64,000 nucleotides of DNA from a virus, in IMG/VR virus record IMGVR_UViG_3300024999_000045, positions 66,450 to 130,449 of that record; one strand, given 5' to 3'. The position numbers and the translations under genes are program-made. This document shows, in pieces, positions 325 through 63,279 of the stretch. How positions within the stretch are numbered: the first letter of the stretch is position 1; every line of letters begins with the position of its first letter. A model generated the notes under the pieces. The model was not told the origin of the DNA, ran no database searches, and worked only from the letters and a program-made list of their open reading frames with translations.

Positions 325-705
325 ATGTTTACAAAACCAATTCATGGCTGGACTACATTACAAATAGAAGGTTATAAATTCTCAGCAAGTTATTTAACTG
401 ACGTTCCAAATGATTGTATAGATGCATTTTATGGATTAAAAAACAACAGACCAACAACAATATTCTTCGATGATGAAGGTAAAGAATGTTATTTAATTTG
501 TGATACCTATACAAGTTATGTAATTTATATTGATGATTACAATAAAACAAAAGTTATTGAATTTAATAAAGGAATTAAAGAATTAGCACAAGAATTTATA
601 AATAATATTGAAGAAAACTTTGAAGATTGGCAACTTTGGGAATGTTATCACAATGAATTATTAGAAATTGATCTTACTGAATTAAAAGAACTTCTAAAAG
701 TTTAA
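325..705 (+). CDS. Hypothetical phage protein (126 aa)
   Basis: ORF track; GAGGTG RBS upstream. Confidence 0.7.
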   Translation: MFTKPIHGWTTLQIEGYKFSASYLTDVPNDCIDAFYGLKNNRPTTIFFDDEGKECYLICDTYTSYVIYIDDYNKTKVIEFNKGIKELAQEFINNIEENFEDWQLWECYHNELLEIDLTELKELLKV

Positions 706-723
706 ATACAATAAATGTTTCGT

Positions 724-1227
724 TTAAAGTTTATTTATTAATTTATTTAAGTGATTTTCTATTTTTTTAAAGTCGATTTTTTGTTTCTCATTATTAAAAT
801 ATAATTCAATATAGTCTTTATGCAAGTACATTTTAGCATATTCTAAACATAAAAAAATTGTCATATTTAATAAATTTTCTTCTTCTATATTTTGAGGATT
901 ATGTTTTACCTTTCTTTTAATTTTTTTATATACCTTTTTATTCTGGATTATATTTGTTGTATTGAGTTCTGATATTTTTATTTTTAATAACTCTATTTGT
1001 CGGGTATCAGTTTCTATATTATCACTATTCCCTAACAAATAATTATTATTTATTCCAAAAGCACTAGATAATATTTTTACTTCAATATCCGTTGGTGATT
1101 CTAAGCCACAAATATATTTATCTATTTGAGTTTGTTCTATATTAGAAATTTGTGCTAATAAATTAGTATTTAGATTATATTTAAATAATTCATGTTTTAA
1201 TCTTTTAATAAATATTTCTTTATTCAT
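724..1227 (-). CDS. XRE-like helix-turn-helix transcriptional regulator
   Basis: N-terminal LAQISNIEQTQIDKYICGLESPT...LSSAFGINNNYLLG matches the XRE HTH pattern; start moved to MNKEIF after a GAGGTG RBS. Confidence 0.65.
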   Translation of the reverse strand: MNKEIFIKRLKHELFKYNLNTNLLAQISNIEQTQIDKYICGLESPTDIEVKILSSAFGINNNYLLGNSDNIETDTRQIELLKIKISELNTTNIIQNKKVYKKIKRKVKHNPQNIEEENLLNMTIFLCLEYAKMYLHKDYIELYFNNEKQKIDFKKIENHLNKLINKL

Positions 1228-1312
1228 AAAATCACCTCTAATATAGAATACCATATTTTATATTACAATAAAACTAATTAAATAAAAATTATATTTGAAA
1301 GAGGTGGGATGC

Positions 1313-1474
1313 ATGAGTTATATTCCAGAAAGTCCATTATGTATGCTTATAGGGTTGGCGGATTGGTCGCAAAACGAATTAAAGAATGGAAGTAGAATTA
1401 AAGCTAGTAAAATACATAGAGTGTTAAAAAGAATAAATAAAAGAAGAAAAGATCATGGTTTAGTACATTTTTAA
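1313..1474 (+). CDS. Small hypothetical protein (53 aa, MSYIPESPLC...), not in the ORF track
   Basis: Translated by hand; GAGGTGG RBS upstream. Confidence 0.5.
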   Translation: MSYIPESPLCMLIGLADWSQNELKNGSRIKASKIHRVLKRINKRRKDHGLVHF

Positions 1475-1516
1475 TTTAAATGAAATTAACTTTTTAATTT
1501 AAAAAGGAGATATAAA

Positions 1517-1630
1517 ATGGCAATATATGTTGGATTTATGATTTGCGACAACTGCAATGTACATTCAAATTGGGGTGAAAGTTGGCACTGCCCTTTTTGT
1601 GGATGTGAAGAAGGTAAAAGAGATGAATAA
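1517..1630 (+). CDS. Small CxxC...CxxC zinc-finger protein (37 aa), not in the ORF track
   Basis: MAIYVGFMICDNCNVHSNWGESWHCPFCGCEEGKRDE; AAGGAG RBS; stop overlaps the next start. Confidence 0.6.
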   Translation: MAIYVGFMICDNCNVHSNWGESWHCPFCGCEEGKRDE

Positions 1631-2024
1631 AAATAATAAATATTGGATTCTAACATGCTTTATAGGAATAGTTATAATATACTCGCTTTGCATGTATCTA
1701 ATGGTTAAAAATTTAGAAATACCTACGAGAAACTCTCTTACAATAATTCAGCCTAATATTCAAAACTTTTATAAAACAATTGATGTTCAAATAACAGATA
1801 TTCAAACAGTTTGGGCAGATAATAGAATAAAAAAATATAAAATTTTAGTATGGAATGAAGAATATAATTTAGAACAAACATTTTACATAAGCAATTGGGA
1901 TAGGTATGGTTACGAATTAGAGAGTGGCCAACTAAATAAAAAAGATATAATAAAAGCTGAATTATTATCAAAAGTTTTAGAGGACAAAGTAATATCAAGA
2001 AATATTGAACAATTAGGATATTAA
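1623..2024 (+). CDS. Hypothetical protein with an N-terminal transmembrane segment
   Basis: ORF track 1557..2024; likely start MNKNNKYW overlapping the upstream stop; hydrophobic stretch ILTCFIGIVIIYSLCMYLMV. Confidence 0.6.
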   Translation: MNKNNKYWILTCFIGIVIIYSLCMYLMVKNLEIPTRNSLTIIQPNIQNFYKTIDVQITDIQTVWADNRIKKYKILVWNEEYNLEQTFYISNWDRYGYELESGQLNKKDIIKAELLSKVLEDKVISRNIEQLGY

Positions 2025-2034
2025 GGAGAAAATT

Positions 2035-2364
2035 ATGTGCAGAGGAACAACGAATAGTAAAGATGTATATTTAATAAAAGTATCAGAAGAAACAAAGAAA
2101 AGATTGTCCAGAACTAATCCTAAATGGATAGATGGCCACGGTGGAATAATAGTAGATTTGTGTATTGGTAAAGAAGTTGAATATTTAGTAAATCATAGGG
2201 TAATTACTTTAGGTTGTTGTTGTGGACATGGCATAGAAAAAGCTGAATGTTTAATAGATAGTTCAAGTAAAGAATTATGTGAAATCTTAGGTTATCACGC
2301 ACACGAATATAGTAAAGAACATACAGAAAATAATATATTGGAAATATATTTAAAGAATATTTAA
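2035..2364 (+). CDS. Hypothetical Cys/His-rich protein (LGCCCGHG motif)
   Basis: ORF track; AAGGAG RBS. Confidence 0.65.
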   Translation: MCRGTTNSKDVYLIKVSEETKKRLSRTNPKWIDGHGGIIVDLCIGKEVEYLVNHRVITLGCCCGHGIEKAECLIDSSSKELCEILGYHAHEYSKEHTENNILEIYLKNI

Positions 2365-2396
2365 ATAAAACTAATTTTTTATCAAAAGAGAGGAAG

Positions 2397-2597
2397 ATGA
2401 ATATGAATAAACAAGAAGAGTTATTTAATAGATTTAAAAGTTTAGGACTTAGATTAACTAGTTTAGGTTCATTTGTTCAAAATGAAGGGTTTAATCCAAC
2501 GTCTGAACAATTACTTGAGTTTGTAAACTTAACAAATGAAAATTTAAGTGATTTAAATAAATTAAGAGAAGATGTGTTAAGATTTTACCAAAACTAG
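2397..2597 (+). CDS. Hypothetical protein (66 aa)
   Basis: ORF track; GAGG RBS. Confidence 0.6.
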   Translation: MNMNKQEELFNRFKSLGLRLTSLGSFVQNEGFNPTSEQLLEFVNLTNENLSDLNKLREDVLRFYQN

Positions 2598-2713
2598 ATT
2601 TAAACGTATATTTTGAAAAATCAAAAAATCAAGAATGTAGTAATAGCAAGGGTTGTAGGGTTTGCATATTTGAATAAAAGAATCATTTTACATAAATAAA
2701 AGGAGGAAACTAT

Positions 2714-2956
2714 ATGATATATATAAATTGTTTAATATTTTTAATATTAGGAATATGTATAGGGTTATTAATAAAAGAATTAAAAAAACCAAAACAATAT
2801 ACATTTTGTTATTGTCCAGAATGTAAAAATGAACTTTGTGGGAGTGATAGTTTTATAGGTTACACCAAAGACGGATTAGTGCTTTATAAGTGTTCTAAGT
2901 GTGAAAAGGAAACTAAGTGGTATTTTGATACACCGGCACCATTTATTATAGATTAA
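2714..2956 (+). CDS. Membrane-anchored zinc-ribbon protein
   Basis: N-terminal hydrophobic helix, CPEC...CSKC; AGGAGG RBS. Confidence 0.6.
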   Translation: MIYINCLIFLILGICIGLLIKELKKPKQYTFCYCPECKNELCGSDSFIGYTKDGLVLYKCSKCEKETKWYFDTPAPFIID

Positions 2957-2980
2957 ATTACTGACTTAAAGGAGATAAAT

Positions 2981-3487
2981 ATGGATATTTGGTTTATTTC
3001 AGACACACATTTTGGACATACAAATATGATTGCATATGAAAATAGACCATTTAGTTCTACTGAACAAATGAATGAAGTTTTAATTGAAAACTGGAATAAA
3101 TGTGTTAAACCAAATGATATTATTTATCACCTTGGAGACATATTTTTATGCAGCGTTGTAAAAGAAAAAGAAATTGCAAGTAGATTAAATGGAAATAAAA
3201 AGTTATTTCTAGGTAATCACGACAAAGCAACACTTACTCATTATGAAAAATTAGGATTTAATGTTTTGTGTGATAGAAATTATTCATATTATGATGATTT
3301 TAAATACAAAGACTTTAATCCAGCACTAATGCATAGACCTATATTTATAAATAATAGATTTGTTATTCATGGTCATGTACATAGTAATATTAGTGAGTAT
3401 GAGAAAACATATCCAAACTCATATAGGTGTGTAAGTGTTGAAAATATAGGGTATAAACCTATACATATTGATGAGATATTGAAATAG
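2981..3487 (+). CDS. Calcineurin-like metallophosphoesterase
   Basis: DTHFGH, GD, GNHD and HGHVH motifs. Confidence 0.9.
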   Translation: MDIWFISDTHFGHTNMIAYENRPFSSTEQMNEVLIENWNKCVKPNDIIYHLGDIFLCSVVKEKEIASRLNGNKKLFLGNHDKATLTHYEKLGFNVLCDRNYSYYDDFKYKDFNPALMHRPIFINNRFVIHGHVHSNISEYEKTYPNSYRCVSVENIGYKPIHIDEILK

Positions 3488-3525
3488 AATAAGTTTTTTA
3501 TTTAAAGATTAAAAGGAGACTAACA

Positions 3526-4815
3526 ATGGAAAATTTAAGAGAAATCAGAGAAATATTCGATTTAATTGGCTCAACACCAAGCAAGAATGAAAAGAAAGAA
3601 ATTCTTGATAAGCATAGAGACAATGAGTTATTAAAAACTATATTAAATTTCATTTATAATCCGTTCATTTTAACAGGTATATCTAGTAAGAAAATTGATA
3701 AAAAAGTGAATATGGATTGGTGTCACGCAGCTACGATAGATAATAATATTACAAGTCTTATAAATTATCTAACTTTAAATAATACTGGTAAAGACGAAGA
3801 TATAGTTGCGTTAAAAGTTTTTATTAGAAAACAAACTGAGGAATCACAGGAATTTATAAGAGGAATTATAACTAAAAACATAAAAGTTGGTATGACTTCA
3901 TCAACAATAAATAAGGTTTTTGGTAAAGATTTTATACCTGAGTTCAAGGTTATGTTAGCGGAGAAATATAAAGACTATAAAGATAAATTAACTGGTGATT
4001 TTATAGTTACACAGAAGCTTGACGGAGTAAGATCAGTTTTTATCAAAGAAAATGGTAGTGTTAAAGTATTTAGTAGGCAAGGTCAACCTATTGAAGATTT
4101 AATTGAACTACTACCTGAATTTGAAAATTTCCCAGATAACACTGTATTTGATGGTGAATTATTAGCAGTTAATAACGAAAACTTAGATAGCAAAACTCTT
4201 TATAGAAAGACTGTTAAAATAACTCAATCAAAAGGTAATAAAACTGGAGTTGAATTCCATGCTTTTGATATGGTGCCACTAGAAGATTTTAAGCAAGGAA
4301 AATCAAATATTATATGTATAGTAAGAAAAAGAGGGCTTGAGTCTTTATTAGATTCAGGATATAAGTATATTAAATACGTTCCAGTGTTATATTATGGAAA
4401 TGATAAAAGTAAAATAGAGCCATTATTACAAAAGGCGAGAAATGAAGGCAACGAAGGGATTATGGTTAATTTAGCAAATGCACCTTATAGTTGCAAAAGA
4501 ACAAAAGATATTCTTAAGGTTAAAATTATGGAAAGCGTTGACTTGAAAGTTACAGGATATGAAGAAGGTGATAATAAATATACTGGAATGCTAGGTGCTT
4601 TAGTTGTAGATTATAAAGGATTTACTCTTAAAGTTGGTGGTGGTTATACAGATGTTGATAGAGTTGAAATATGGAAAAATAGAGATGATATGATTGGAAA
4701 AATTATTGAAGTGAGTTATTTTGAAGAAAGTGAGAACGAAAGAGGGGGTCTTAGTTTACGCTTTCCTGTTTATAAAGGGGTAAGAAATGACAAGACTTCG
4801 CCTTCATATAATTAA
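3526..4815 (+). CDS. lig: ATP-dependent DNA ligase
   Basis: Adenylation motif QKLDGVR, FDGEL, EGIMV, C-terminal OB fold (VGGG...LRFPVY). Confidence 0.93.
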   Translation: MENLREIREIFDLIGSTPSKNEKKEILDKHRDNELLKTILNFIYNPFILTGISSKKIDKKVNMDWCHAATIDNNITSLINYLTLNNTGKDEDIVALKVFIRKQTEESQEFIRGIITKNIKVGMTSSTINKVFGKDFIPEFKVMLAEKYKDYKDKLTGDFIVTQKLDGVRSVFIKENGSVKVFSRQGQPIEDLIELLPEFENFPDNTVFDGELLAVNNENLDSKTLYRKTVKITQSKGNKTGVEFHAFDMVPLEDFKQGKSNIICIVRKRGLESLLDSGYKYIKYVPVLYYGNDKSKIEPLLQKARNEGNEGIMVNLANAPYSCKRTKDILKVKIMESVDLKVTGYEEGDNKYTGMLGALVVDYKGFTLKVGGGYTDVDRVEIWKNRDDMIGKIIEVSYFEESENERGGLSLRFPVYKGVRNDKTSPSYN

Positions 4816-4868
4816 ACGAAATTAATCTTTTATTGAAATAAAAATATAATAACAGAGGAGAATGAAAA

Positions 4869-5979
4869 ATGGAATTTGTTTTAACAAAAATATCAGGTAT
4901 TGATGATGCAATGGTTTCTTTAAGAATGTCGAAGAGGGCATATACTAAAGAAGTTTCAAATGATTTACGTGAATTAGTTAGAAATAATCTAGATAACAAT
5001 GGATTTGCAACAAAAGAATTAGATGAACGATACATACAAGAGTTAAAAAAATTAGAGAAATATGGTATAGAATTTAATCATAACGTGCTTTTAAAGTTTA
5101 TTGATTTTACAATTGAAACTACTGGTCTACATAGAGGTGCTCAGGATTAATTATTTTACTAATTAGTAGAATATAACGGTCGTCTTAATTAGAAATAATT
5201 AAGATTACGAGGTGGTGAACCTGCAAATGCAGGGTGTGGTACAAATGTACTGCTAACGGTGAACACCTAAGCTCCCAATGGGAGTATGGCAATACCGTGT
5301 GAAGCACTTTATATAAAGTGAACATGTAACGACTATTCCAAAGGGAAGTAGTTTGTAGGCGAAATTCCTACTTACGAAGCGCCACCCACCTTAACGTAAA
5401 GACGAAGGTGAAGAGATAGTCTATTCCCTGATAAATATCTCGAAAGAGAGGGTATAAAAGGATCTTGATGCACATGCCCAACGTATGAATAATAGAATAG
5501 TTCGTTCATCAACAAGGCTTGCTAGATTTGAACAAGGTGAAAAATCAGATTATTATAAAGATAAAATCCTATTCTTTGATGAAGTTATGGATTTCCCAAA
5601 TGCAATAACTAATAATGATGGATTGGAATATATAAAAGCACCTTATGGATATGTAAGAAAAGATTTAAGAGAAGATAATGATGTTTTACGAGGTAATTAT
5701 CCATTATCAATTCCTTCTGATTGTATATGGAAATGTGATTATCCAAGTCTAAAGCATATATATAAAATGAGAAATAAATTTAGTCATGCTAATCCAGAAC
5801 TAAGAGATGGAATTGAAATGTTAGCAAACCAAATTGAAGCACAACTTCCTATATTGGGTAAATATATCAGACATGATTTAGCACGAACACAAGAAGGAGT
5901 GCAACCTACACATTGTATGGATACAGTAACTATCTCAAAAGAATATTTAAAATCATTAGAAAGAGCTGATAATAAATGA
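4869..5979 (+). CDS. Divergent ThyX-like (flavin-dependent thymidylate synthase fold) protein, about 265 aa, split by a group I intron; exons 4869-5147 and 5461-5979
   Basis: Removing 5148-5460 joins ...GLHRGAQD to DLDAHAQRMNNRIVRSSTRL in frame; motifs align with ThyX (FTI.G.SR..., H...SxR, L.h...lR....A..E.R) but the RHR motif is not canonical. Confidence 0.6.
5148..5460 (+). mobile_element. Group I intron without ORF (313 nt) in the ThyX-like gene
   Basis: Exon ends in U (GAT) and intron ends in G (...GGTATAAAAG); core P7 AACGACTA / AAGAGATAGTC; in-frame exon joining. Confidence 0.9.
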
Positions 5980-14991: not shown

Positions 14992-15357
14992 CTGTGATCT
15001 ACCTTTCTCTCAAAGAGCATAAAATTAGATTAATAAGTAAAATATATGAAACCTTACGGTATAATTGAGAAATTTATATAAAAGAACTAAATGTTCTGGA
15101 ATAAAATAAAAAGACAACAATATTTCAATTCTGTTGTCTTTTTTATAATATTTTGAAGTTTTTAGTATAATTTAAGCAAAACACACTAAAATCACCATTT
15201 TCCTTGATTTTAGTGTGTTTTGAGGTATTTTTGTTATTTTTCAGAAAATCGAAAATCAAGAATGTAGTCGTACCAAGGGCTGCGGGGTTCGTGTTTTTTG
15301 ATAAAATAAGCATTTTATTTAAAGTGTTAAATTATAATTTAAATTAATAAAAGCACC

Positions 15358-20419: not shown

Positions 20420-23400
20420 TTATGATCTAGTTTTTCTAGTGATTTGGTGCATAAAATCAGTTACATCATTAGTTTGAACATTAACGCTATCTTTGCCAAA
20501 GTTAAAGTTATTTTCTATAGTTTGACCACCAATCCCAGCTAAAGTAGTAGGCATATTGAATGTTGGAAGTTTAATATTTGCAACTATATCTTTTACAATA
20601 TTTAAACCTTCTAAGAAATTAGGAGTATCTGTATCATTTAGTAGTAATTCTTTTTTATGAACATACATTAAGCCTTCTTGGTTTCCAGTATATAAACCAG
20701 TTTCACCAGTTACAAGACTACTTTTATATGAACCGTCAGCTTTAACTCCTGTTATTTTATAATCTCCACCAGCAGTTTTCACTATAGTTCCTACACTTAA
20801 ACCTTTTTGTGCCGTTCCATCTGCTTGGGCTTTTACTACTGTTGGGGCTGTAGATTTAGAACCATTATTTAGAATATTTCCAATAATTTCTTTCCCTTTG
20901 TCAATGAAACTTTCAACTTTATCAACAGTATTAGATACAAAAGTTCCTCCACTACTTTTACTAGAACCACCAGATGAAGGTATTTTACTTGGGTCAATAT
21001 TATCACCAGTTAATAATGCATTTTTAGCAGTTAATTTAGCAAATTCAGCGGCTTCATATTTAACCATTGCATCTACATTACCTTTAAATTTAATAAATAA
21101 ATTAGAATAGTGTATGTCGTATATTTTTTCAATACCAGCAAAATGTTTATCAAGTTTAATCTTTTCTTCGTCATTAGCTTTTTCAATAACATTACTTTGC
21201 TCATCAAATGCTTTCTTTTTAGTATCAATTAAACCTTTTTGATAATCAATTTCTGCTTTTAAACCATCTTGTTGTTTTCCAAATGCAATGTCTTTTTCCC
21301 AGTCAGCATAATCGGATTCCATACCGTAAAGAGTTTCGGTTTCTTGTTTTATCTTACGTGGATCACTAACCCATTCCCAAGCACCATTTTGAAAGATTTT
21401 AACGTCTTTCTCAGCTTTGATATTTGCAAGTTTTAACCTTTGTTCTTCTAAGTCAAGAAGTTTTTTAGCTCTCGTCTCTTCTTCTTCTTTTTCCTTATTA
21501 GTAGCAACAAGTATATCAAGTTTTTCTTGAAGGGCGTCTATTGTTGCATTAACACTATCTTCATAATCACTTTGGTTAGAACCATATATATCTTCTTCAA
21601 TATTAGCAATTTTTTGTTTTTGTTTTTCCTCAAGTTGAAGATATTTATTTTCTTTATCTAAATCAACTATGCGTTTTGATAGTGCTTTTGCATTTTCTAC
21701 CATATTAAGATTTGTTTCTTTAATTTCTTGATTTGTAGACTTTAAAACCGATTCAAGTTTCTCTTTAGTGGAAATAAATATATCATCTGTCTTATTTACC
21801 TCAGAAGTTGTACTTTCTAACTCAGAAAGTGATTTTGTGGTTTCTTTAACAATAGAATTATTAGCTGATAATTGTGCTTTTAAATTCTCATATTTTCCAC
21901 TAAAATCATCGTCTTTTAGTAGTTTTTCGTTGTCTTTTAGCGTTTCTAACTCATTATTGAACGGTTTTAGAGCGTTTTCAGAGTCTTGAAATAAAATGGA
22001 TATTTTATTTGAAGATATTGTTTGATTAAGAGAGAAAATCTCTTTATTTAATGCCATTCCAGCGTTTTCGTTGTCTTTATACAAATCTTTTAAAGTTTTA
22101 AGAGTATTTTTAACACCTTCGACTCTATCTTGTTCGTCAGGATTATCTATTAGTGAATTAAATAAATTTTTATAAGTGTCTGTTTCATTATTATTCTCAT
22201 CAAACCATTCATTGCTATTGTCATATCCAGAAGATTTTCTAACACTATCCGCTGTTTTTGATAAATTATTATTTGCAATATCAAGTTGGCCTAATTTGAT
22301 TTTTCTGTTTTCAAGTAATTCAAGTGTTTTTTCTTCTTCTTTATTGTAATCTTTTTGTTGTTTGGCAATTTCAATTTGATATTCTAAAATTTCTGCTTTA
22401 CGTTCTGTTTGTAATTGATCATAACTTATTGAATTTATGATATATTCCTTTGAATCTTTTAATGACCCTTTTGAGGAAGTATCTTTATCGGGATCGGGAT
22501 CTGGAGTTCCATTTCCCACAATTGGATCCTTTATCACTACAGGGTCATTTATTTCTTTAATAAGTTTTTCTATATCGGTTATTTGGTCTAAATAGTCTTG
22601 AGCTTCCTGTACTAATTCTCCAGATTTAATACCTTTAGTTAAAAATGCCTCTTGCATTTTTTTTGTAGATTCCTCGTTTAACTCCCAAACAAAATCTTTT
22701 TCATTTTTATATTTTTCATCTTTTAATTTTGCTCCCAAAATTTCATTAGCGAAAATACTTGCGGGATCAGACATTCCAAAATTAGTAGATTCAACCCCAT
22801 AGTTAGCGGCTAAACTAGCCATTTGATTATAAGTTACAGTTTTTTTACCTTTAACAGATTCCCCTGCATTATAATATTTTCCACCAAGCGCAGATTCATC
22901 TACAACTACTTTTTCATAATGTTTTTTTTCTAATGCTAATAATTTCTTTTTAGCATCAAGAGACTCTATATAAGCAGCTTTCTCTGCATTGCTAAATGCT
23001 TTTACTTTATTTGTTGCTTCAACATATGAATTTCCTAATATATCTACTTTATCTGCTAATTGTGGGAATAATTTTGCCATTTCAATTTGAATACTATGAA
23101 GTTTTTGTTCTTCCTCTTTTGTTCCTTTAGAAGCTTTTTTTAGTTCATCATATTCAGATGCAAGACTATCTAAAGTTTTTATTTTAGAATTGTTCCCTTT
23201 TATTTCTTCTGCTGTACTTTTGGCGGATTTAAGATTTTCCTCGTGTAATTTTTTTGCATTATCCGCTGCTTTTTGTGATGCATTACCCCACAACATTAAT
23301 CCACCAACTATTGCACCTATTAATAATGGTATTCCGCCAACTAATATATTCATAATTGTTAATTGTGTATTTAATGCGCCAGTTGCCGTACTAGCTCCAA

Positions 23401-25674
23401 ACATAATTGGTATTAATGCTTTTAATGCATTACTCCAAGATAATATACCTTGTGCAGCTAATTGAATATTAATTGCTTTTAATGATAATGAAAGTTTTAT
23501 AGCAATCCCCATAATTACTATAAACAAAATATTTAATGAACCAAATTTTTGATTTAATCTATCTAACACTTCAACCATAGCAATTCCAAAATCAACAATT
23601 TCTTTTATTGAATCTGATTTTACTAATCCTTGCCAAAATTTAGTAACAGTTTCTTTGAAAGTATTTACCTTTGCATTTATTGAAGTCATATAAGTTTCTT
23701 GTTCCTTAGCGCTACTTCCGGCACTATTTAATGCAGATTCTGTTGCTTTAATTCCATCCTCAATATTATTTAATAACGATGCAACTACAGTACCTTGTCT
23801 TTTACCCGCAATCATCTCTAAAAGTGTAGCACGTTTTTTATCTGTCAAATCTTTCCATACTTGGGAAACATCTTTCATAATTTCAAATGTAGATTTAAAA
23901 CTATCATTATCTTTCATAATTTCTACACCAGATAATAATTTTATAGATTTTCTAAGTTCTGGGATTAATTCGCCTGACTCTTCATTTATTCCACGAAGCC
24001 TCATAGACACAGTTTTTAGGGCTGTTCCTACAACTTCGGGATCTTGAATTGCCTTTATACCCTCGGTTTCCCGATATTTTTTAGGGGAGTAGACTATACC
24101 ACCATCCTTTTAAAAGGACGCCCTTCGGTAGTCGTTGAGGGGAGTTAGTTTAAATAACTCAGCCCTGCTGATTGCCCAATCCTTTAAATTGTCACACTTT
24201 GGTATTAAAGGCTCTAAGGGGTTTCCAGCATATTCAGGGTTTTCTATATATATTACTATATATAGGCACTAGTATGTTAATGCATTTGCAGCCGTAATTA
24301 ATCCGATACTTTCTTCTAATGTATTTCCAGCTTCATATAATGAGGCTGAACTTCTCTTTAATGCATCTCCAATTCCACCTGATGTTATTGCGAAATTATT
24401 CAACTTTGTTATCCTAAAGGCTTTTTATCCTCTAGTTCTTATAGTTTCCTATAAGTTCAGCATATCTTTTCACCCTTAATATTACTTAGTGGGGCGCCCC
24501 TGCCTCTTGGACGAATTATAGTCTACTTTCATAGTATCATCGTCTATGCGTTGCGGCTGGTTAATATTTTAATATTAACCTTCACCTCTGATTAGCTTAT
24601 ATTTTTATACTTAGCTTTCCAGATTTTTTCAGGAGTTATCATTAGTATCTTAAGATACTAAGCGGCAATAAATTTACCGACTTCATTCGCGGCATCAATT
24701 AAGTGGGCGGTTTCAGATATTTCTAAATTGAAGCCTTTTAATGTTGAAATAATTGATTCAGTTGCTTCATCAATTCCAATATCGCCAATGTTACTATAAA
24801 TTAAAGCTTGTTTTGCTAATTCAGCAGATTCTTTTATACTATAGTTTAATTTTGCAAATGAAGTGGTAGCATCAATTGCAGCTTTACTGCTATGTCCAAC
24901 TTCAATAGCCATGCTATTAGCAGTTTTTAGAAATTTATCATAAGATTCTTCTGTCTCATCCGTAACTTTTTTCAAATTTACGATTGATGTATCTAATTGT
25001 GTAATTGTAGAAATTGCAGATCTTATAGCACGTACTGTCCCAAAAATGGCTGTTCCAGCAGCCGCCCACATGAGCATTTTTTTGGTATTTTTTGCAAACT
25101 CATTAAACCCACCTTCTGCATTAACTTTAGTTTCTTTTAAACCCGTGTTAAGAGTTTTTACAGACATATTTATTTCTTTCATTCTGGCAGACGCTGCTTT
25201 TGGTGCTAATCCATCTAAACTAGAGAGATTCTTTTTAATATTATTAATTTCATTTTGAACTGGAATATTATTTACTTGACTTTTATAACTTGCCTGAGTA
25301 CTTCTTAATTGCAACTCAATCTTTTGTTTATATAGAGCAACTTGTTCTTTTAATTTTAAATTTGTTTGTTGTTCTGCATTACGTATTTTATCTGCATTTG
25401 ATTTTGCAGTATTACCTAATTTTACATGCGCTGCTCTTGTTTTTTCTATTTCTTTGTTATCAACATTAGCAACGATTTTTATAGGTTTAATATTTTTATT
25501 TAGTTCTTTTATTTGCCTATTGATATCGCTTACTTTTGTTTTATTAATATCAATAGAAATGCTCAATGGTTTTAATTTTTTACTAAATTCTTTTAATTCT
25601 TTATTAAAAGAATTTATTGATTTGGAACTTTGATCCAGTTGTGACCTAATTATAATACTTAAATCATTTATCAT
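20420..25674 (-). CDS. Tail tape measure protein, about 1583 aa, three exons (25674-24676, 24400-24280, 24051-20420)
   Basis: Spliced reading DAANEVG|NNFAITSGGIGDALKRS...TAANA-S|IQDPEVVGTALKTVSMRLRG restores the TP901-type TMP core; total 4752 nt is divisible by 3. Confidence 0.9.
24052..24279 (-). mobile_element. Group I intron without ORF (228 nt), tape measure intron 2
   Basis: P1 exon GCAU pairs with intron GUGC giving a U-G pair at the splice site; P4 UGCUGG/UCAGCA; P7 GACUA/UAGUC; terminal G. Confidence 0.9.
24401..24675 (-). mobile_element. Group I intron without ORF (275 nt), tape measure intron 1
   Basis: P1 exon CGGU pairs with GCCG; P7 GCAUA/UAUGC; terminal G (...AACAAAGTTG); in-frame joining. 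Confidence 0.9.
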
Positions 25675-29431: not shown

Positions 29432-30439
29432 TTATTTATCTTTTAAATCACTCATCATTTGTTTGATTTTATCTCTTGTTTCAGCTTTAGACTTAGGTTT
29501 AACATAACTCTGACGAGTGGTTTCTATTGATTTATGATTTCCAATTTCAGCAGCAAGACTAATGTCCCCAGTTTTTTCAGTAATCATATTAAGAGTTGTT
29601 TTTCTAATACAATGGGCATGAAAATCTTCAATGCCTAATATTTTTCCCATTTTACGAATTCTATTTTGTAACGTACCTTTTTTCATTGCATTATATTGGT
29701 TATTATATCTTGAAATAAACAAAGAATCTATTTCTAAATTATCCATTTCTTTTCTCATTTCCAACCATTCATTAATTAAATCTCTAGTTGATTCAGAAAA
29801 TGCAACTTCTACTCTATATCCTCTTTTTTCTCTAATATCTTTAAACAACATATTTTCTAAATCAAAAGAACTAAGAATTAATTTTTCTAAAGCACCTATT
29901 CTATTTGCACTATCTAATGCAATCTCAAATAATATTTTATCTTGAATATCAAACTTTGTACTATCTTTTAGTCCTTCTTTTATTCTTTCTACTTCTTCAT
30001 CATTTAAAAAATATGAATTGATTATTTTTTCATCATTAGCACCTTGCATTCTATCTATTTTCTTATCAAAAGGATGCATTGGCACTAATCTTCTTTTCAT
30101 TGACCATAAATAAAATGAAGATATGGCAGCAACTTTATTATTTACTGCTTTTTTATTATTCTTTAATGTATCTACACAAAATCCCATATATCCTTCAATT
30201 ATATCAATAGCATCTTCAAAAAAACTATCTTCATATAATCCAACATTATTCCAATCTTCTGATAAATAAACTAAAAATTGTGTCATATTACTTTTATAAA
30301 CTTTGTAAGTTGTATTTTCTACTTCTTTATTCTTTAAAATACTAGATTTTAGATATTTTTCATACAAAACTAAATTATCTTTATTAATTAAAGCCTTTTT
30401 ATCATCTGTGAAATATCTTATTTTTACAATCTTTCCCAT
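29432..30439 (-). CDS. Tyrosine recombinase
   Basis: Catalytic R (SANRI), HxxR (HCIRKT), H/Y (NHKS...SY); likely start MGKIV after a GGTGGG RBS. Confidence 0.9.
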   Translation of the reverse strand: MGKIVKIRYFTDDKKALINKDNLVLYEKYLKSSILKNKEVENTTYKVYKSNMTQFLVYLSEDWNNVGLYEDSFFEDAIDIIEGYMGFCVDTLKNNKKAVNNKVAAISSFYLWSMKRRLVPMHPFDKKIDRMQGANDEKIINSYFLNDEEVERIKEGLKDSTKFDIQDKILFEIALDSANRIGALEKLILSSFDLENMLFKDIREKRGYRVEVAFSESTRDLINEWLEMRKEMDNLEIDSLFISRYNNQYNAMKKGTLQNRIRKMGKILGIEDFHAHCIRKTTLNMITEKTGDISLAAEIGNHKSIETTRQSYVKPKSKAETRDKIKQMMSDLKDK

Positions 30440-30496
30440 TTTATCCCCACCTATTATTATATTTATATCTATATATAAATTCATTAATTTTCTAAT

Positions 30497-30961
30497 TTAC
30501 TTCAGACTTAATTTAAGTCCAGTCATTGTCATTCCTTTTTTAAACGATAACAATAATTTTCCACTTTTTAAATCATCTCTTGTATTTTGTGTAAAAGGTC
30601 TTGGCTTTTCATATTCATAAGGTGATTTACCAAACATATCTCCAGTAAAATCATAACCTTCGCCAGTTTCTACTACTCTTGCAATATTTTTACCAGTAAA
30701 ATCATCTTCTCTGACATTGGTTATAATTACACCATTTTGTAGAGTATTTCTGTCAATTTCAATATCTTCTAATAATCCACCAGTGCGTTCATATTTATGT
30801 GGACTTTCACTTTGGCTATCATATTGATCATAAACATCTGTTTGAATATGTTCTTGCATCAAAAGTTTAACATCTTCAGCCACAACCGTATCTAAAACTA
30901 CTTTTAGCTGTTTATCAACGTATTTTGCCAATTCAGCCATATTTTTAAAGGTTTTGCCCAT
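30497..30961 (-). CDS. Virion morphogenesis protein (gp10-like neck/tail completion)
   Basis: YERTGGL and PRPF motifs; synteny. Confidence 0.55.
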   Translation of the reverse strand: MGKTFKNMAELAKYVDKQLKVVLDTVVAEDVKLLMQEHIQTDVYDQYDSQSESPHKYERTGGLLEDIEIDRNTLQNGVIITNVREDDFTGKNIARVVETGEGYDFTGDMFGKSPYEYEKPRPFTQNTRDDLKSGKLLLSFKKGMTMTGLKLSLK

Positions 30962-31088
30962 TTTATCACCTTTTCTTCAAATGGTATTATTTACCAACCT
31001 TGAAACCCTTGGTATTAAAGGGTTTCAAAATCAGTTTTTTAGATAAAATCACTCTTTTATTGAAAGTTATATTTCTCAATAATTATGT

Positions 31089-31418
31089 TTATATTGGTCT
31101 AGAAATCAATTCTGGCTTAACAATTATAATAACTGGATTATTTATTGAAATCTCTGTTTGATTACTATAAATAATCTCAAGTTCTGTAATATATGAACCG
31201 CTAATAGCTGTATCTTCTCTAGTTAAAATATACATACATTCGGCAGCATTAGCATCTGTGATGCTACATTCCCTTATTAATACTGTTTCTGTATTTTTTT
31301 CTTTCATTTTAAAATAAACCATAGCACCATAAAGTGATTCAACTCTGCTATCTTTTTTAATTGTAAATATTAGTTTAATATTATTGTCGAATTGATTAAC
31401 TTCAATTTTGCTTGCCAT
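31089..31418 (-). CDS. BppU-N-like baseplate/adaptor protein
   Basis: ITDANAAECMYILTREDTAISGSYITELEI pattern. Confidence 0.6.
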   Translation of the reverse strand: MASKIEVNQFDNNIKLIFTIKKDSRVESLYGAMVYFKMKEKNTETVLIRECSITDANAAECMYILTREDTAISGSYITELEIIYSNQTEISINNPVIIIVKPELISRPI

Positions 31419-38100: not shown

Positions 38101-39645
38101 ATATCCAGTAGCACCAGTTACAGCATTCCAAGAATAAGTTACTTTATCTAAATTATCTTCAATAAGTTGATTAATAATTGTAGAATCTACTAAAGTTAAT
38201 CCCCAAGTTGTATAAGCAGATGAACCTTGTGAGTTAGTTGCTCTAATTAAATATTCATATAAAGAATTATAAGAATAAACAATTTCATCTAAATATGTAT
38301 TTGTATTAGGTGATAAACTAGTTAAAATAGTTTCAATTTCTCCACTATTTACTTTTCTATATATTTCATAATTAGCTTCTAGAGTTGAATTATCTGTCCA
38401 GTCAAGTTGGAATCCACTTGGTAATTGAGTTATGAATAAATCTGTTGGTGCATTTGGTAATGTGTTAATTGCTACTAAACTAGATTTATCTGATTCAGAA
38501 TCAACGGTATAACTTGTAACAGAAAGATTTAAATTCTGCTCTGATGTACTTGTAAATTGACGCGATAAATCTATTCCTTCATAAACTAGTTCGTCTAAAC
38601 TATTGTATAATCTATAACCATCAACATTTACAACACTATCCCAAGAATAAGTAATATTATAACCTTCTGTTGTTGCTTGTAAATTAGTTGGAGTTGGTAA
38701 TAAAAATATAGATTTTTCTATACCAGTTGATATACCAGTTGCGTTTACTGAAGATACTTTATATTCATAATTTACTCCAGTTAAGTATGAGAAAGTGTCT
38801 GTGTATGTTGTTGTGGATTGATTTAAAGATAATGATACCCAATTACTATCTACTTTCTTATAAACATTAAACCCAGTTTCAATACCAGAATTATCTACCC
38901 AATCAAGTTGAAAACCAGTTTCTAATCTATTAATAGTTAAATTAGTCGGATTATTAGGAATTGTTTTTACATTAATCGTTGCAGTTGCAACAGATTCACC
39001 AATATCATTATATGCAGTTAAATAATATTCATCATTTTGTTCTACTTCAGAAGGTAATTCATAACTTGTTGAAGTTGTAGTATTAAATAAAACATTGTTT
39101 TTATATAAATTATATCCTGTTGTATTAGTAGTCGCAGTCCAAGATAAGGTTGCGTTATAGCCATTGTAAGATTGAGTGAAGTTTGTTGGAACAGATGGTG
39201 GCATAGGTACTAAATCGCCTAAAAGTTGGCACTCCCAACATTGCAGAATCAAACCAGTACACGAACCATCAATTTTAAAATATCTATATCCAATACTAGA
39301 GTTGATAGTAAAGGTTTTCCATGCATTAGAAGTATAAGTTTGGTTACTAAAAGATATAATAGAAGTCCAATTAATACCATCTTGACTACCATATACGGTA
39401 AAATTCATAAAATTTCTATCAATATCAGCGCTACTATAAATACGCAAACTACTTAATGTATATAAATTACCACAATCAACCGCTAACCAACCAACTTTAG
39501 TATTTGCTGGCATCCATTTTGCTGCAATACTATTATCAAATGCTTTATATGGAGCGTATGTTGCGCTATATTGATTACTTGCACTTATAATAAATGGGGT
39601 TGGTGTAGTATCACTTGTCATTATTGGTACTATATTTGTTGCCAT
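35185..39645 (-). CDS. Large tail appendage protein: discoidin/F5-8C-like domain, FN3 repeats, C-terminal SGNH/GDSL esterase
   Basis: ASNQYS...YKAFD...GWLAVD; multiple P.NL....W FN3 repeats; LGDSIT, GYGSDTT, GGTND, GVHP blocks. Confidence 0.8.
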   Translation of the reverse strand: MATNIVPIMTSDTTPTPFIISASNQYSATYAPYKAFDNSIAAKWMPANTKVGWLAVDCGNLYTLSSLRIYSSADIDRNFMNFTVYGSQDGINWTSIISFSNQTYTSNAWKTFTINSSIGYRYFKIDGSCTGLILQCWECQLLGDLVPMPPSVPTNFTQSYNGYNATLSWTATTNTTGYNLYKNNVLFNTTTSTSYELPSEVEQNDEYYLTAYNDIGESVATATINVKTIPNNPTNLTINRLETGFQLDWVDNSGIETGFNVYKKVDSNWVSLSLNQSTTTYTDTFSYLTGVNYEYKVSSVNATGISTGIEKSIFLLPTPTNLQATTEGYNITYSWDSVVNVDGYRLYNSLDELVYEGIDLSRQFTSTSEQNLNLSVTSYTVDSESDKSSLVAINTLPNAPTDLFITQLPSGFQLDWTDNSTLEANYEIYRKVNSGEIETILTSLSPNTNTYLDEIVYSYNSLYEYLIRATNSQGSSAYTTWGLTLVDSTIINQLIEDNLDKVTYSWNAVTGATGYKLYITDYLGSINIIDTIETSYIFNYTEEVNQSVYVVAYITDTYGNSESENSNTLTTKSSPRNLVTNVTTSIVENGTDWDITVNFDDNSVNEDGYKLKYIVDNGTENIISVPSTSIITIGDAYQYILTIPKSSVQEKLDISLAHYNSIGQSAYSTSAILLMPPSIIQWKYDSVTNNINLAWSDNSLIDDGLKLKYSIDGGLEIVETITVGTTAFNIPLALGSTINLNLFYTNNGYEGFSSRVVIASSTTYQPLQIPTNLCVNWNGSGIARFTWDSTSVDGSGYKFAYTINGGVETVIETSNNYYEVTVTEHLDTIVGKVKSSNLLEESNYSSTIEIMYVLVEPVTPSNFKRERTENGLMLTWDTVDYINNYEIFYIFNSVEDSITTTNNFYEIIIPEDVIEFSCYMKANYVGGLISEPTETFAFAITYCKEPINTFVINETITENYIDTYVSNINLKQSYEVDTITWTVDTTFSTGIDTITLSYALRFDDNYVISTATYYPTTIKYDNEMAVSNSDTKTSYVLNETIITEDVRYENGFIEIASTNTGLRFENGYLSAAISNQNVSSKFTNSMAISNTNLIQSNYPLYTIYVSTVSSDGAPIESTIINAYRLAVPIETEIRKITVCTLGDSITAGHPGYWAESGTGRITSQYQYWLQRRLKDDFIVLNNGYGSDTTQRMLDRFERDVISKSPNYVVLQGGTNDLYWAMAENKDNVEYLIYKMDLAKDNLIEMVELSIANNIVPIIGTLIPRTTAQGIYRTALWDFNTWIINYCNSRDDVYYVDFYNAGKENIPPTPLEEPNVPGNLNPLYDGDSRFDEYSNLIRRGSGVHPDDVGYKLMAEAIPLSIFKSLKSGVTLYIDPECTIEESLFGTDTLNKTYFIEFKNVNRGRQKSTTRYIKNIGTQPLIYSLYPKQEDGLDIKFSIDNKGFEDHINNKIDAGGINKIEILVDVPRFGDDPVVLLGLATRALKTNI

Positions 39646-39719
39646 TTAAAAATCCACCTCCTTCTTAAAAATTTTAAATAAAATAGGATTTTTATTTAAA
39701 AAAATAAAGGACAAGTCAT

Positions 39720-41603: not shown

Positions 41604-41789
41604 TTTGTTCTCCTTTTAATCGTTTTTGGGTATTTTCACTGATTTTTAGAAACTCATTTTTTTGAAACCTAGTCGTACCAAGGGTTACGGGGTTCGGTAT
41701 TTTAAATAAAATAGTCATTTTGTTTAATTTAAAAAAAGATAAAAAAATAGACGGTGTAAACAATTTTCATCATTTACACCGTCAGGTTA

Positions 41790-52440: not shown

Positions 52441-55360
52441 TTAATTCTTAAACATAAATTTCGACCAATCATTATTTTTTTTAGATCCGCCAGTTAATTC
52501 ATTTTCTAATATCTTTATATAATAATTTGCATAACCTAAACTACTATATCTATCTTTTCTTGCACCAGAAGTTTCTTTGATTTTAACTTTACCATCATTA
52601 ATGGTATATTCTAAATTAACTAACTCATTAACTAAACTTGTAGTTTGTAAGTATGGAAATTCCATATTGGCTTTTTCTTCTTCTGATTTTCTTATATAAT
52701 CTTTATTATTAATTAAATGTTCCATACCTTCTAATTCATTAACTAATAATTTAATTCTCCCTTTTTGAAAATCATTTCTTAAATATGTTGCAATTTTATG
52801 ATTTATTTCTGCTCCTGCTTTTATACTAAATATTATTGGGAGAGCATTTTCAGAAGTACTTCTCTCTGCCATGTCTTCATTGTTAAAGCAAGTCCAAGCT
52901 TCATATTCGACATCTCTTTCCTCATCGTATAAAACTTTAACACAATCATCAAATATTGAAATTCCGTTCCCATAGGTATCCATAACTACATAGTCAGCTT
53001 TAAAATCCTCATATAACTGTTTTAATCTAATAGCCTGTTTTGTTGAATGTTGTCCATTTAATGACTCTATATAAACCACTTGTTTTTCGTATTCTTCACC
53101 TGAAGGAGTTGGAATTAATCTTATACAAGTAAATATAGTATTATCATTAACATTTCCACCCATCAAGGCCAAATCGACACCAATAACTCTTTTTTCACCA
53201 TTTCTTCGTTCATCTTTTACTTTTTTCTTTTTATCATAGTCAATATTTAAAGTAGGAATGAATGGTTTTTTAAGAACTCTACATTTAGTTACGTCTTCAA
53301 ATTTAAAATAAGCATTTTCATTTTGGCCAAAGAATAAACAGTCCATTTCCATACTCCACGAAATAGAGTCGAAATCCTTTTCTTGCATTTCATCTAAAAC
53401 TTGCTCTTTCATAAGAAGATTTTCGGCAATTGACAATTGATAAGGTAATCCACAAACAAAATACTTTTTACCTTCCAACATTGCTTCTTTATATGCTAAA
53501 AACTTATCCCATGACCAATGACTTTTATACCAAGCAGAACTTATATAAATTTCTTTATTACGTTCTGTTAAATGTTTATATTCTGGTTTATTTAAATAGT
53601 TAGGTTGTCTTGGTGCGGTTAAGAATTTTCTTAAAACTTTATTTATAATAGATAAATCTATCATTCTAAATTCATCCGCAATAACCATATTAGCTCTAGC
53701 ACTACGGGCATTATCATTACTAGCAACTACTTTAATCCAACTGCCATTATGAAAACTAACATAAGTATCATTTGTTCCAGTTTTGAATTCAAATATTTCT
53801 CTTTGCAAATTAGAAGATTTATCTTTTAATTCTGCAACCTTTTCTGAAATTATGTTTCTTGCTTGGCCTTTTGTCGTTATTGTTATCCATAAGGCTTTTT
53901 ATCCCTATGTTCTTACACTTTACCATTGTGTAAGACCAGCATATATTTTCACCTTCAACATTACTTGTTAAGGTGGCGAGCACTCGTGCCAATATTATAT
54001 TCTGTTTTCACAGGTTCAATTGGTATGCGTTACGGTGAGCCACACTTTTTAAAATGTGCTTTACCTCGGTATTATCCCATATAATGGAGGACTTCACCGA
54101 TTTTGCTCTCTAATTGTGAAAAGCATTTCTACTTTAAACGGCTAATCTATTATTCATTTCCACTGCTTTATCATATTTTCTATTAAGATAAATATTTGAA
54201 TTTAAGTAAAATAGTTTTAAAAAAGTTAAGATACTTTTTTTATCATAAATCATTAATTTATAATTACCTTTTCTTTTAATATAAATTTGAGAGGTAATAT
54301 TATGAAGTTTAAAATATTCTTTAATTTCTTCTAATATAATAAGTGATGCGCCAACTATTTCCATAGAGTGACGTAATCTACCATTTTTATCAACTGCACA
54401 ATATAAACATCCGTCGCCATCAACGAATCCCCTTATATAGGCAAAATAAAACTCCTCCTTTATTTTAGGAAGAGCTAAGTTAAATGTTTTATTTGGAATT
54501 ACACCTAAGTTTATTAAATCTTTGCACATTTTAGTTGAGTTTATGACTATTTCGCATGCATTATATGCTTTGTCTTTAATTTTGTTTATTATTTTTTTTA
54601 TATCAACATTTCCGTTAATAAACTCATTAAATTTTTCTAAATGTGGTTTATCTTCTAATTTTAAAGATATTTTCAATCTAGACCCACCATCTTTTTTATT
54701 ATGCACACAACCATCTGCTCCAATAAAACCTAACCAATATGCTTTTTCTTCTGTGTTAATTATTTCAAAAACATCACTATTATATTTATATCTTATCCTA
54801 GATTTTTCATCTTTTATAAGACCCATTTTACGTAGTTTTGATTGAACGGCACTTCTGCTTCTATTCAAATATGTTGACGTATCTTTAATAGTATTAATTC
54901 TAAAGTTATCTTTTAAATAATCAATTTCTTCAATTGACCAATGACCACTAATAACTGTTCCCATTATTCCTCCAATGTTTAATTAGTTATTTGTAGAAAT
55001 GAATTCCTAACCACTTGCCAAAACTATTTTTGTTCCTGGATATAATATACATCTTATTACACAATATATAGCTATTAGAAAAGATTTTCCCTGACCCCTG
55101 GCGGCTAAATACATAAAATAATGTGAATAATCCATCATAAAAATAAGAATTTTCTGGAATAATTTTAATTTAATATTTAAATATTCTTCTGCAAATCTAT
55201 GTGGATTTGCTCTATAAAAAGAAGTCCATAAAGCTATACCATTCATTAGTTTTTCGGACTTAGTTAGATTCTCAACTGTTTTGTTAACAGTTTTAGTCTT
55301 AGTAAATATATTACCATTGTTTTTATTTCTATTTCTATCAACACTAAAATTCTTTGCCAT
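52441..55360 (-). CDS. terL: Terminase large subunit, about 594 aa, split by a group I intron; exons 55360-55010 and 53874-52441
   Basis: Walker A region LAARGQGKS; spliced KIVLASG|TKGQARNII; Walker B ADEFR; nuclease GVDLA...YVVMD...KDRYSS. Confidence 0.93.
53875..55009 (-). mobile_element. Group I intron with a LAGLIDADG ORF placed 5' of the catalytic core
   Basis: Exon ends in U and intron ends in G (...AACAATAACG); P4 UCGGUG/UACCGA; P7 GCAUA/UAUGC; CATTTCTAC/GTAGAAATG complementary flanks around the ORF. Confidence 0.92.
54134..54964 (-). CDS. Intron-encoded two-motif LAGLIDADG endonuclease with an N-terminal Myb-like HTH
   Basis: WLGFIGADG and [10 protein letters not shown]; WSIEEIDYL. 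Confidence 0.92.
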   Translation of the reverse strand: MGTVISGHWSIEEIDYLKDNFRINTIKDTSTYLNRSRSAVQSKLRKMGLIKDEKSRIRYKYNSDVFEIINTEEKAYWLGFIGADGCVHNKKDGGSRLKISLKLEDKPHLEKFNEFINGNVDIKKIINKIKDKAYNACEIVINSTKMCKDLINLGVIPNKTFNLALPKIKEEFYFAYIRGFVDGDGCLYCAVDKNGRLRHSMEIVGASLIILEEIKEYFKLHNITSQIYIKRKGNYKLMIYDKKSILTFLKLFYLNSNIYLNRKYDKAVEMNNRLAV

Positions 55361-61917: not shown

Positions 61918-62013
61918 AAAAACATTATAATAAAAAGTAATGAAATTTAATCAAAAATATCACCTACTCAAAGTCAAAAAATAAGCTTTGAGTAATTTTT
62001 AAAAAGGGAGATG

Positions 62014-62092
62014 AAGTCGGTTTTGATACGGCTCCGTATCAATATTTCATTTTTTTTGAAAAAGTGATACGGCTCCGTATCAAAACCGACTT
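62014..62092. repeat. Nested palindrome and direct-repeat element
   Basis: TGATACGG-CT-CCGTATCA at 62024 and 62065, enclosed by AAGTCGGTTT...AAACCGACTT. Confidence 0.9.
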
Positions 62093-63065: not shown

Positions 63066-63158
63066 TATAATATAAACATTATTATATTGTTTAGTTGTTT
63101 GTAATAATTTAATGTTTAAGTTTGTGAAATTTGTTAATAATTATTCTGAGGTGATATT

Positions 63159-63278: not shown

Positions 63279-63279
63279 T

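Follow-up and report, generated by a model that had tools for sequence, protein, structure and literature searches.

A short interrupted palindrome, ATAAAA-N6-TTTTAT, lies between the accessory genes of a phage that its gene content identifies as SPβ-like, and it recurs with the same six-base-pair (bp) spacer across the SPβ-like family. It is described here from a 64,000-nucleotide (nt) stretch of DNA, the window, which covers positions 66450–130449 and forms the second half of the 130,449-bp IMG/VR virus record IMGVR_UViG_3300024999_000045; coordinates are those of the window unless given as genome positions. With a probability of about 0.4, we favour the reading in which a phage-encoded dimer recognises the palindrome as a dyad-symmetric site, the site doubling as a short shared 'linker' for module exchange. 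SPβ has long been studied, yet the palindrome is present in 13–16 exact and ~45 near-exact copies per genome, and we found no prior description of it in the SPβ-phage literature that was covered, Brady et al. 2023 on the SroE/SroF binding sites lying outside that coverage.

A spaced palindrome with a fixed spacer

Two forms of the motif are used below, the strict form ATAAAA-N6-TTTTAT and the family-wide consensus ATRAAA-N6-TTTYAT. The strict form occurs six times in the window against 0.28 expected from dinucleotide shuffles, and a scan of spacers from 0 to 20 finds these six exact copies at N6 and 0–1 at any other length, which shows enrichment over shuffled sequence, the check that the initial annotation had suggested, and ties it to a spacer of six. 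In the whole record, 16 exact copies are present at N6 versus 0–2 at other spacers. When one mismatch is allowed, the record holds 58 copies at N6, 44 of them intergenic, whereas control spacers of 2–11 yield 13–33 copies, of which 1–9 are intergenic. The spacer scan rules out chance or base composition as the source of the motif. By a de novo scan for spaced palindromes, moreover, TAAAA-N6-TTTTA ranks top in the motif-bearing genomes, and the palindrome is a real element that is conserved across the SPβ-like family.

The two arms behave alike. Single mismatches among the intergenic sites fall in the left arm 12 times and in the right arm 18 times, so that tolerance is similar; the outermost and innermost arm positions are the most variable, the central AA/TT vary least, and the R/Y degeneracy is mirror-symmetric. 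The six central bases differ in all copies; they follow no consensus and lack self-complementarity. The arms of the present phage reach ~11 bp (11-6-11), and no extended arms are present in record G001. No Rfam family matches the palindrome.

Placement at the edges of small accessory-gene units

The record, at 26.5% G+C, is estimated by CheckV to be 69% complete. Its plus strand carries ~130 small early, replication and accessory genes up to ~80 kb, beyond which mainly minus-strand tail, head, portal and terminase genes are found. Nearly all of the ~44 intergenic copies (≤1 mismatch) lie in the co-directional accessory/early gene block. As the initial annotation had noticed, the stop codon of the upstream gene is placed at the start of the site, either 0–6 nt before the left arm or within it (A-TAA-AA). 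On the other side, the Shine-Dalgarno sequence of the ribosome-binding site (RBS) of the next gene starts 3–8 nt past the right arm, and the next start codon lies 15–27 nt downstream of the palindrome. Where the intergenic region is long (75–270 nt), the site stays by the upstream stop codon and σA-like promoters follow downstream, for example a site at genome position 26237 with a promoter at 26296 and a site at 35093 with a promoter at 35140.

The plus-strand block contains 38 sites per 130 genes, and the units between sites hold one gene (16 units), two (7), three (2), four (2) or 6–14 genes (9). The partition into units of one to three genes that had been proposed applies to 25 of the 38 units in this block, but nine hold 6–14 genes, and these are replication genes. 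Sites separate just 3 of the 45 pairs of neighbouring conserved genes, i.e. accessory rather than core genes are flanked. These results support the view that the sites genuinely punctuate the accessory genes and are not placed at random.

In the window, exact intergenic copies are present at 2365–2382, 15301–15318, 31043–31060 and 39678–39695. The first abuts the stop codon of the open reading frame (ORF) 2035–2364 and lies 14–20 nt ahead of the next start; the second forms the 3' end of copy B of a repeated element described below, inside a non-coding stretch of 580 bp in the minus-strand block. The third is located between the minus-strand genes 31089–31418 and 30497–30961, beside a G+C-containing hairpin, and the fourth is flanked by a hairpin that resembles an intrinsic terminator and by the RBS of the minus-strand gene for a tail protein of 1486 amino acids (aa). 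Around this fourth copy, the perfect palindrome claimed for 39675–39698 is indeed found as 9-N6-9, with arms that extend to 12 bp. One-mismatch copies lie at 2674–2691 (right arm TTTTAC; 3' end of repeated-element copy A, with the start at 2714 22 nt on), at 3484–3501 (left arm ATAGAA, which holds the TAG stop of ORF 2981–3487; the ligase start is 24 nt on) and at 41706–41723 (TTTTGT; 3' end of copy C). All of these had been listed by the initial annotation, together with three further positions. Two of the three, 1480–1497 (ATGAAA-N6-TTTTAA, 5 nt past the stop of ORF 1295–1474 and just ahead of the next RBS) and 4816–4833 (ACGAAA-N6-TTTTAT, abutting the ligase stop codon), had been counted among the perfect or near-perfect copies; they carry two mismatches to the strict motif and one to ATRAAA-N6-TTTYAT, a class with ~50% background, and are kept as degenerate members by their position right after a stop codon. 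The third, at 706, reads ATACAA/TTTCGT and is not a member. The statement that all sites are intergenic holds for those listed, but exact matches at 21991–22008, in the tape-measure gene (20420–24010, minus strand), and at 39087–39104, in the 1486-aa tail protein gene, had been missed and are intragenic.

A probable duplex-DNA signal rather than an RNA structure or a promoter

The position between stop codon and RBS would suit an RNA-level element, namely an intercistronic stem-loop that ends transcription, serves as a ribonuclease cleavage site or shields the ends of the mRNA. The plus strand of the motif-rich block has almost no canonical terminators, two SPβ sites are annotated as stem_loop features, and some copies in this A+T-rich phage pair over 11–12 bp (39678: −6.3 kcal/mol), all of which would agree with such an element. 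By comparison, 30-nt segments at the 44 intergenic sites have a mean RNA folding energy of −1.74 kcal/mol versus −1.50 kcal/mol for other intergenic 30-mers, which amounts to the mean of random intergenic sequence. The stems consist of A/T only and no U-tract follows them at the sites, unlike intrinsic terminators, and several sites are located in divergent promoter regions or downstream of a canonical terminator.

The arms of G001, which uses ATRAAA/TTTYAT, bear directly on pairing. In the mRNA sense, the arm combinations are A..C 21 times, A..T 15, G..T 9 and G..C 3; the non-pairing combination is thus the commonest and the compensated one the rarest, and A·C outnumber G·U, so that neither the compensatory nor the wobble pairing expected of a structured RNA is seen in G001. 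This lack of covariation indicates that the arms are kept as sequence and not as a pair, the signature of two half-sites in duplex DNA, and we regard an RNA-level element as improbable.

A promoter or initiation signal, used by the host σA polymerase (the left arm plus T gives TAAAAT) or by the phage polymerase YonO, would account for the T that is the first spacer base in half of the exact sites and creates a −10-like hexamer. This hexamer lies downstream of the conserved box in four long elements, once with a TG extension, and YonO co-occurs with the motif. Such a signal leaves the dyad symmetry unexplained, however; the −35 is not conserved, an RBS 1–8 nt past the right arm is too close for a start site plus leader to fit, and transcription by YonO begins at one place only, upstream of yonK (PMC5467207). 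For lack of −35 conservation and of space for a leader we reject the σA promoter, and an initiation signal of either kind is the least probable of the explanations weighed here.

Distribution across SPβ-like elements and hosts

Viral records with strong enrichment at N6 were selected by a pattern scan of IMG/VR followed by spacer controls at each locus. Enrichment at N6 only is observed in SPβ, phi3T, SPR, G001, G003, G004, G006, G007 and G008. Exact N6 copies number 13–14 in SPβ (0–3 at other spacers), 16 in phi3T, 13 in SPR, 25 in G003, 29 in G007, 13 in the Clostridium rectalis contig G006 and 16 in the Paenibacillaceae prophage G008, where the arms are mostly ATGAAA. In G001 the consensus form occurs in 65 copies versus none in a reversed-pattern control. 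The palindrome thereby survives across phages whose proteins are just 25–45% identical. The rare MrpR_N_CB domain is encoded in four of the five records examined for it, which were the present record and four chosen by motif enrichment. The motif was not found in the related elements pPAV141, G011, G012 and G013.

Where such an element resides in a host genome, the motif is a feature of the prophage only. The 7.7-Mb genome of G008 has 30 matches, of which ~23 fall on contig C22, the one with the prophage (spread over 196–402 kb), and the remainder equals the control count; a like confinement is seen in G006 and G007. As counts on the host chromosomes are at control level, a host regulon is unlikely and we reject it.

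Other elements carry different intergenic signals. Contig C4 of G010 (L180–L185, Bacillus gaemokensis) has an asymmetric variant, TAATAAAA-N6-TTTTAATAACTATT, 10 times before RBSs, and in addition ACTGT-N9-ACAGT six times against 0.2 expected. Contig C388 of G012 (47–54 kb, L201), a related element from a Clostridium metagenome-assembled genome, has another, two-hairpin cassette before each RBS, in which a GGGACTT-N5-AAGTCCC hairpin is followed by GCTAGTT-N3-AACTAGC. The G012 cassette suggests that palindromic punctuation of early gene arrays is general and that its sequence is lineage-specific.

An excess of mosaic junctions at palindromes in the SPβ family

No close relatives of the present phage were found by megablast against phages, in ligase-based scans of viral and metagenome contigs or in a YopQ-based genome scan; a ligase-alignment scan returned 20 loci, all at ≤61% identity, the nearest of which (L136) has no palindrome. 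Comparison of gene order between this genome and G003, G004, G006, G007 and others, with too few homologues shared, gave no signal. The junctions were therefore examined in SPβ, phi3T and SPR, three mosaically related phages that all carry the motif, with homology blocks defined by ≥300 bp and ≥85% identity.

Between SPβ and phi3T, 8 of 44 block boundaries lie ≤15 nt from a site versus 1.4 expected, and none of 2000 randomisations reaches eight. Among the three phages, palindrome gaps are block boundaries up to ~11 times more often than other gaps. In a stricter test, which takes the intergenic gap as the unit (≤150 nt, early region only), boundaries fall in 6/19 palindrome gaps and 5/78 other gaps of SPβ when compared with phi3T (p = 0.007), in 7/19 and 7/78 of SPβ compared with SPR (p = 0.006), and in 6/15 and 5/86 of phi3T compared with SPβ (p = 0.001). 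The other comparisons are not significant: phi3T with SPR gives 2/15 and 9/86 (odds ratio (OR) 1.3), SPR with SPβ 4/14 and 7/63 (OR 3.2), and SPR with phi3T 5/14 and 10/63 (OR 2.9). On the left, boundaries concentrate on the outer edge of the arm; on the right, they concentrate inside the arm or slightly beyond it.

The 3.2-kb yopW–yoqD block is 99.97% identical between SPβ (NC_001884, 83687–86899) and phi3T (76354–79566). Its homology begins at the first base of one palindrome and stops inside the right arm of another, with unrelated flanking DNA on both sides in the two phages. Such a block bounded by palindromes suggests recent exchange. The junction excess can be explained equally well by short-homology recombination. 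The claim that the sites mark module boundaries is supported by comparison within the SPβ family, with the qualification that some replacements do not use them, as described below.

A tyrosine recombinase as the proposed enzyme

The initial annotation had proposed cassette exchange, with the tyrosine recombinase of this phage as candidate enzyme. The gene (29432–30484, minus strand) encodes an Xer-like protein of 350 aa in which the catalytic R, HxxR, H and Y are present, although its Xer-like match is far below the equivalog cut-offs. It is located in the tail-gene block, where SPβ has yomM, and its upstream neighbour (30497–30961) is 46% identical to the phi3T_30 product. In a cassette reading, the palindromes would be the core sites of this YomM-like enzyme, of a YopP-like one or of host Xer, as in pdif modules; accessory genes would be moved between SPβ-like phages, and the arms would be conserved for compatibility with a shared gene pool. 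Several observations agree with it: two inverted arms flank a 6-bp centre (6-N6-6, and 11-6-11 in this phage), the sites flank accessory rather than core genes, the junction excess of SPβ, phi3T and SPR lies right at the arms and includes the 3.2-kb block between two sites, genomes of this family carry two or three recombinase-fold genes, the enzyme in the window retains its catalytic residues, and the arms are identical across very distant phages.

The details of the sites argue otherwise. The spacer differs in every copy, so that no crossover sequence is shared and classical strand exchange between copies is blocked, and the arm conservation that is family-wide covers just 6 bp per arm. One to three Phage_integrase genes are present in every element, and among the elements compared no recombinase family was seen to follow the motif: YopP occurs in the motif-free G009–G011, and YomM-like genes were undetected in G000, G004, G006 and G008 with the SPβ query. 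Furthermore, 45–65 active direct sites would delete essential genes and be self-destructive. Among laboratory SPβ×phi3Ts hybrids, 15 of 16 junctions lie in long homology (bioRxiv 10.1101/2020.05.06.055103); the lone non-homologous one, near yosA, could not be mapped to a palindrome, and the boundaries of phi3T/phi3Ts replacements have no palindrome. We found no evidence that the tyrosine recombinase, or any other recombinase, acts at the sites, and the enzymatic mechanism first proposed is unsupported. Arm constancy and the preference for accessory genes nevertheless keep cassette exchange as the main rival, below a protein-bound dyad, and we consider it unlikely. More doubtful still is its fullest form, a phage-borne analogue of integron or pdif systems in which a recombinase-fold protein (YomM-like, YopP-like or host Xer) would exchange single genes or small blocks between co-resident phages at a 'common currency' dyad.

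Candidate readers and the proposed model

The record encodes an MrpR/SroF homologue (Pfam MrpR_N_CB, 55 bits; PDB YopR, 1e-12), upstream of which lie a YopP-like recombinase-fold gene and a YopQ/SroE-like gene, and by these homologues the phage is assigned as SPβ-like. We compared the presence and absence of such genes with that of the motif over 15 elements, a correlation that is confounded by relatedness. The YopQ/SroE-like gene is the best correlate, being present in 9/9 motif-bearing elements with an Sro module and in 1/5 motif-free elements; by ESM Atlas, its product is a member of the DndB family. The next correlates are YonO and the HU-like YonN. By SPβ synteny, the yonN/yonO region of this phage should lie past the contig end. 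By comparison, YopP-like and MrpR-like genes are present in motif-free elements too.

MrpR/SroF acts as a monomer on non-palindromic, phage-specific boxes of 24–26 bp (PMC10516654; bioRxiv 10.1101/2025.11.27.690993). The SroF boxes of SPβ are embedded in promoters and unrelated to the palindrome, which is dyad-symmetric and identical in SPβ and phi3T and therefore does not resemble an MrpR/SroF operator of the SPBRE type. Together with the homologues in motif-free elements, the difference of the boxes between SPβ and phi3T rules out MrpR as the palindrome binder. For the second repressor, SroE, the 2025 preprint calls the mode of action unclear (bioRxiv 10.1101/2025.11.27.690993). YopQ/SroE as the binder is a lead only, drawn from the co-occurrence of genes and motif.

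On this basis we propose that the palindrome may be a double-stranded DNA signal of two ATRAAA half-sites held exactly six unconstrained bp apart. It would be read by a dimeric protein of SPβ-like phages, for which the DndB-family YopQ/SroE-like second repressor and the HU-like YonN are the leads. Lying at the edges of small accessory-gene units, past the stop codon and before the next promoter or RBS, the bound site would most likely serve as an operator, silencer or insulator. The same 18–26 bp recur between otherwise unrelated genes, which is why the palindrome could also act as an exchange linker: co-infecting SPβ-like phages would exchange gene blocks at palindromes by short-homology recombination, probably as a by-product rather than as a selected function. 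Repressor operators had been named in the initial annotation as the alternative to recombination sites, and dyad-symmetric, sequence-conserved arms do fit that alternative better.

Several observations weigh against a protein-bound dyad with linker function. Co-occurrence with the candidate reader is imperfect and, as stated, confounded by relatedness: G010 has a motif variant without YopQ, YonO or YonN, and G012 has YopQ, no motif and another intergenic cassette. The junction excess is weaker in the phi3T–SPR comparisons (OR 1.3–2.9, not significant). At orthologous sites of the SPβ family, substitutions amount to 5.2% in arms, 5.9% in spacers and 8.6% in flanks, which is no difference in a comparison of low power. 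From Bacillus SPβ to this Clostridium-type phage, the arms have the same sequence despite the protein divergence noted above, whereas SroF boxes differ even between SPβ and phi3T. Such constancy is seldom seen with a regulator that a phage encodes, and it is better matched by a 'common currency' for exchange; in very distant phages, it is easier to understand as a shared exchange signal than as the target of a fast-evolving regulator.

A repeated ~100-nt element and other features of the phage

Some of the palindromes stand at the end of a longer repeated element of ~100 nt, which has copies at 2598–2700 (A), 15217–15330 (B) and 41622–41735 (C) and a fourth at genome positions 58030–58125, upstream of the ribonucleotide reductase gene. 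Each contains a 25–27-bp, G+C-containing box of the pattern TAGTnnTAnCAAGGGnTnnnGGGTT (2638–2664 in A, 15265–15291 in B and 41670–41696 in C), with a palindrome copy ~10 nt further on. The plus orientation is shared by all four, including copy C, which lies within the minus-strand block, and copy B, whose flanking genes are on the minus strand. The box is asymmetric, and together with its size and number of copies this makes it a candidate operator for the MrpR/SroF homologue of this phage, i.e. a counterpart of SPBRE/Phi3TRE. Rfam has no match for the element. The 25-nt box pattern is also present once each in four unrelated viral contigs of IMG/VR (L001–L004, 35–48% G+C), in L001 inside a terminator-like hairpin just past a tRNA gene. 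The 580-bp non-coding stretch around copy B holds a hairpin with a 17-bp stem (15176–15222) and a bidirectional terminator-like hairpin (15107–15146), and a small RNA may be encoded at 15100–15230.

The ligase relatives point to Clostridium-type hosts, and an identical ligase is encoded on five other contigs. The record also encodes a large serine recombinase and a ribonucleotide reductase, and its DNA polymerase III alpha gene (genome 50197–54642) contains an intein (Intein_splicing, 67.6 bits). A thyX-like gene is present in two parts (4869–5150 and 5485–5979), split by a group I intron at 5163–5443 (Rfam Intron_gpI, 49.2 bits against a gathering score of 50, E 1.4e-11). Terminase-related frames at 52441–53808, 55007–55360 and 55360–56271 are 31–58% identical to phi3T genes and are interrupted by a 276-aa ORF (54134–54964), which could represent an intron or a homing-endonuclease insertion. 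At 62000–64000, the record ends in non-coding, G/T-rich DNA with a strong G-over-C skew (+0.50), in which Tandem Repeats Finder reported nothing.

Comparison with known systems

The SPBRE/Phi3TRE boxes resemble the palindrome in being a repeated element across the same phage genomes, with a recombinase-fold binder whose homologue is encoded here (PMC10516654; bioRxiv 10.1101/2025.11.27.690993). The boxes measure 24–26 bp, are non-palindromic and promoter-embedded, occur in ~10 copies, are read by a monomer and differ from phage to phage. By comparison, the palindrome is identical in SPβ, phi3T and the present phage, occurs in 13–65 copies and is also found at promoterless places. The better counterpart of SPBRE/Phi3TRE is the 25–27-bp box of the long repeated element.

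The dif and pdif sites share with the palindrome the inverted arms around a 6-bp centre and the A/T runs beside that centre, and pdif sites bracket modules of one to three genes. Xer arms differ, however, in that they are 11 bp long and non-identical, with a XerC side and a XerD side, whereas the palindrome has 6-bp arms that are the same on both sides; to our knowledge, it has no sequence match to Bacillus dif beyond A+T richness. Integron attC sites are alike in that an imperfect palindrome overlaps or abuts the stop codon of each gene in a co-directional, largely promoterless array. They are 57–141 nt long, have R''/L''-L'/R' boxes, are conserved in structure and not in sequence, and recombine as folded single strands beside an IntI/attI/Pc platform, none of which is seen here. 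The palindrome element has 18–26 bp, and no integron integrase was found, the best match scoring 16 bits against a cut-off of 265.

A regulatory parallel is offered by the KorB operator (OB) of plasmid RK2, a contiguous 13-bp palindrome present in a dozen copies with promoter-related placement, through which a ParB-superfamily dimer brings about global silencing. The likeness lies in one short palindrome spread over a mobile element, and the DndB-family YopQ/SroE belongs to the same broad superfamily. The differences are that OB is contiguous and that YopQ/SroE binding to the palindrome is a lead from co-occurrence. If a protein does read the palindrome, it would constitute an unrecognised genome-wide control layer in a phage family with an unusual multi-repressor system.

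For module exchange, a parallel is offered by the promoter-early stem-loop (PeSL) cassettes of T4-type phages, which are reported (Arbiol et al. 2010) to consist of ~70 bp with a σ70 early promoter and a stable stem-loop. Recombination between PeSL copies may shuffle modules. Unlike PeSL, the palindrome lacks a −35/−10 pair and a stable hairpin, is an 18–26-bp dyad with a free 6-bp spacer and belongs to temperate Firmicute siphophages. As with PeSL, a repeated intergenic motif flanks small accessory genes in co-directional arrays and coincides with mosaic boundaries, here in the SPβ family, and the palindrome also supplies a concrete and testable case of the 'linker sequence' idea for phage module exchange.

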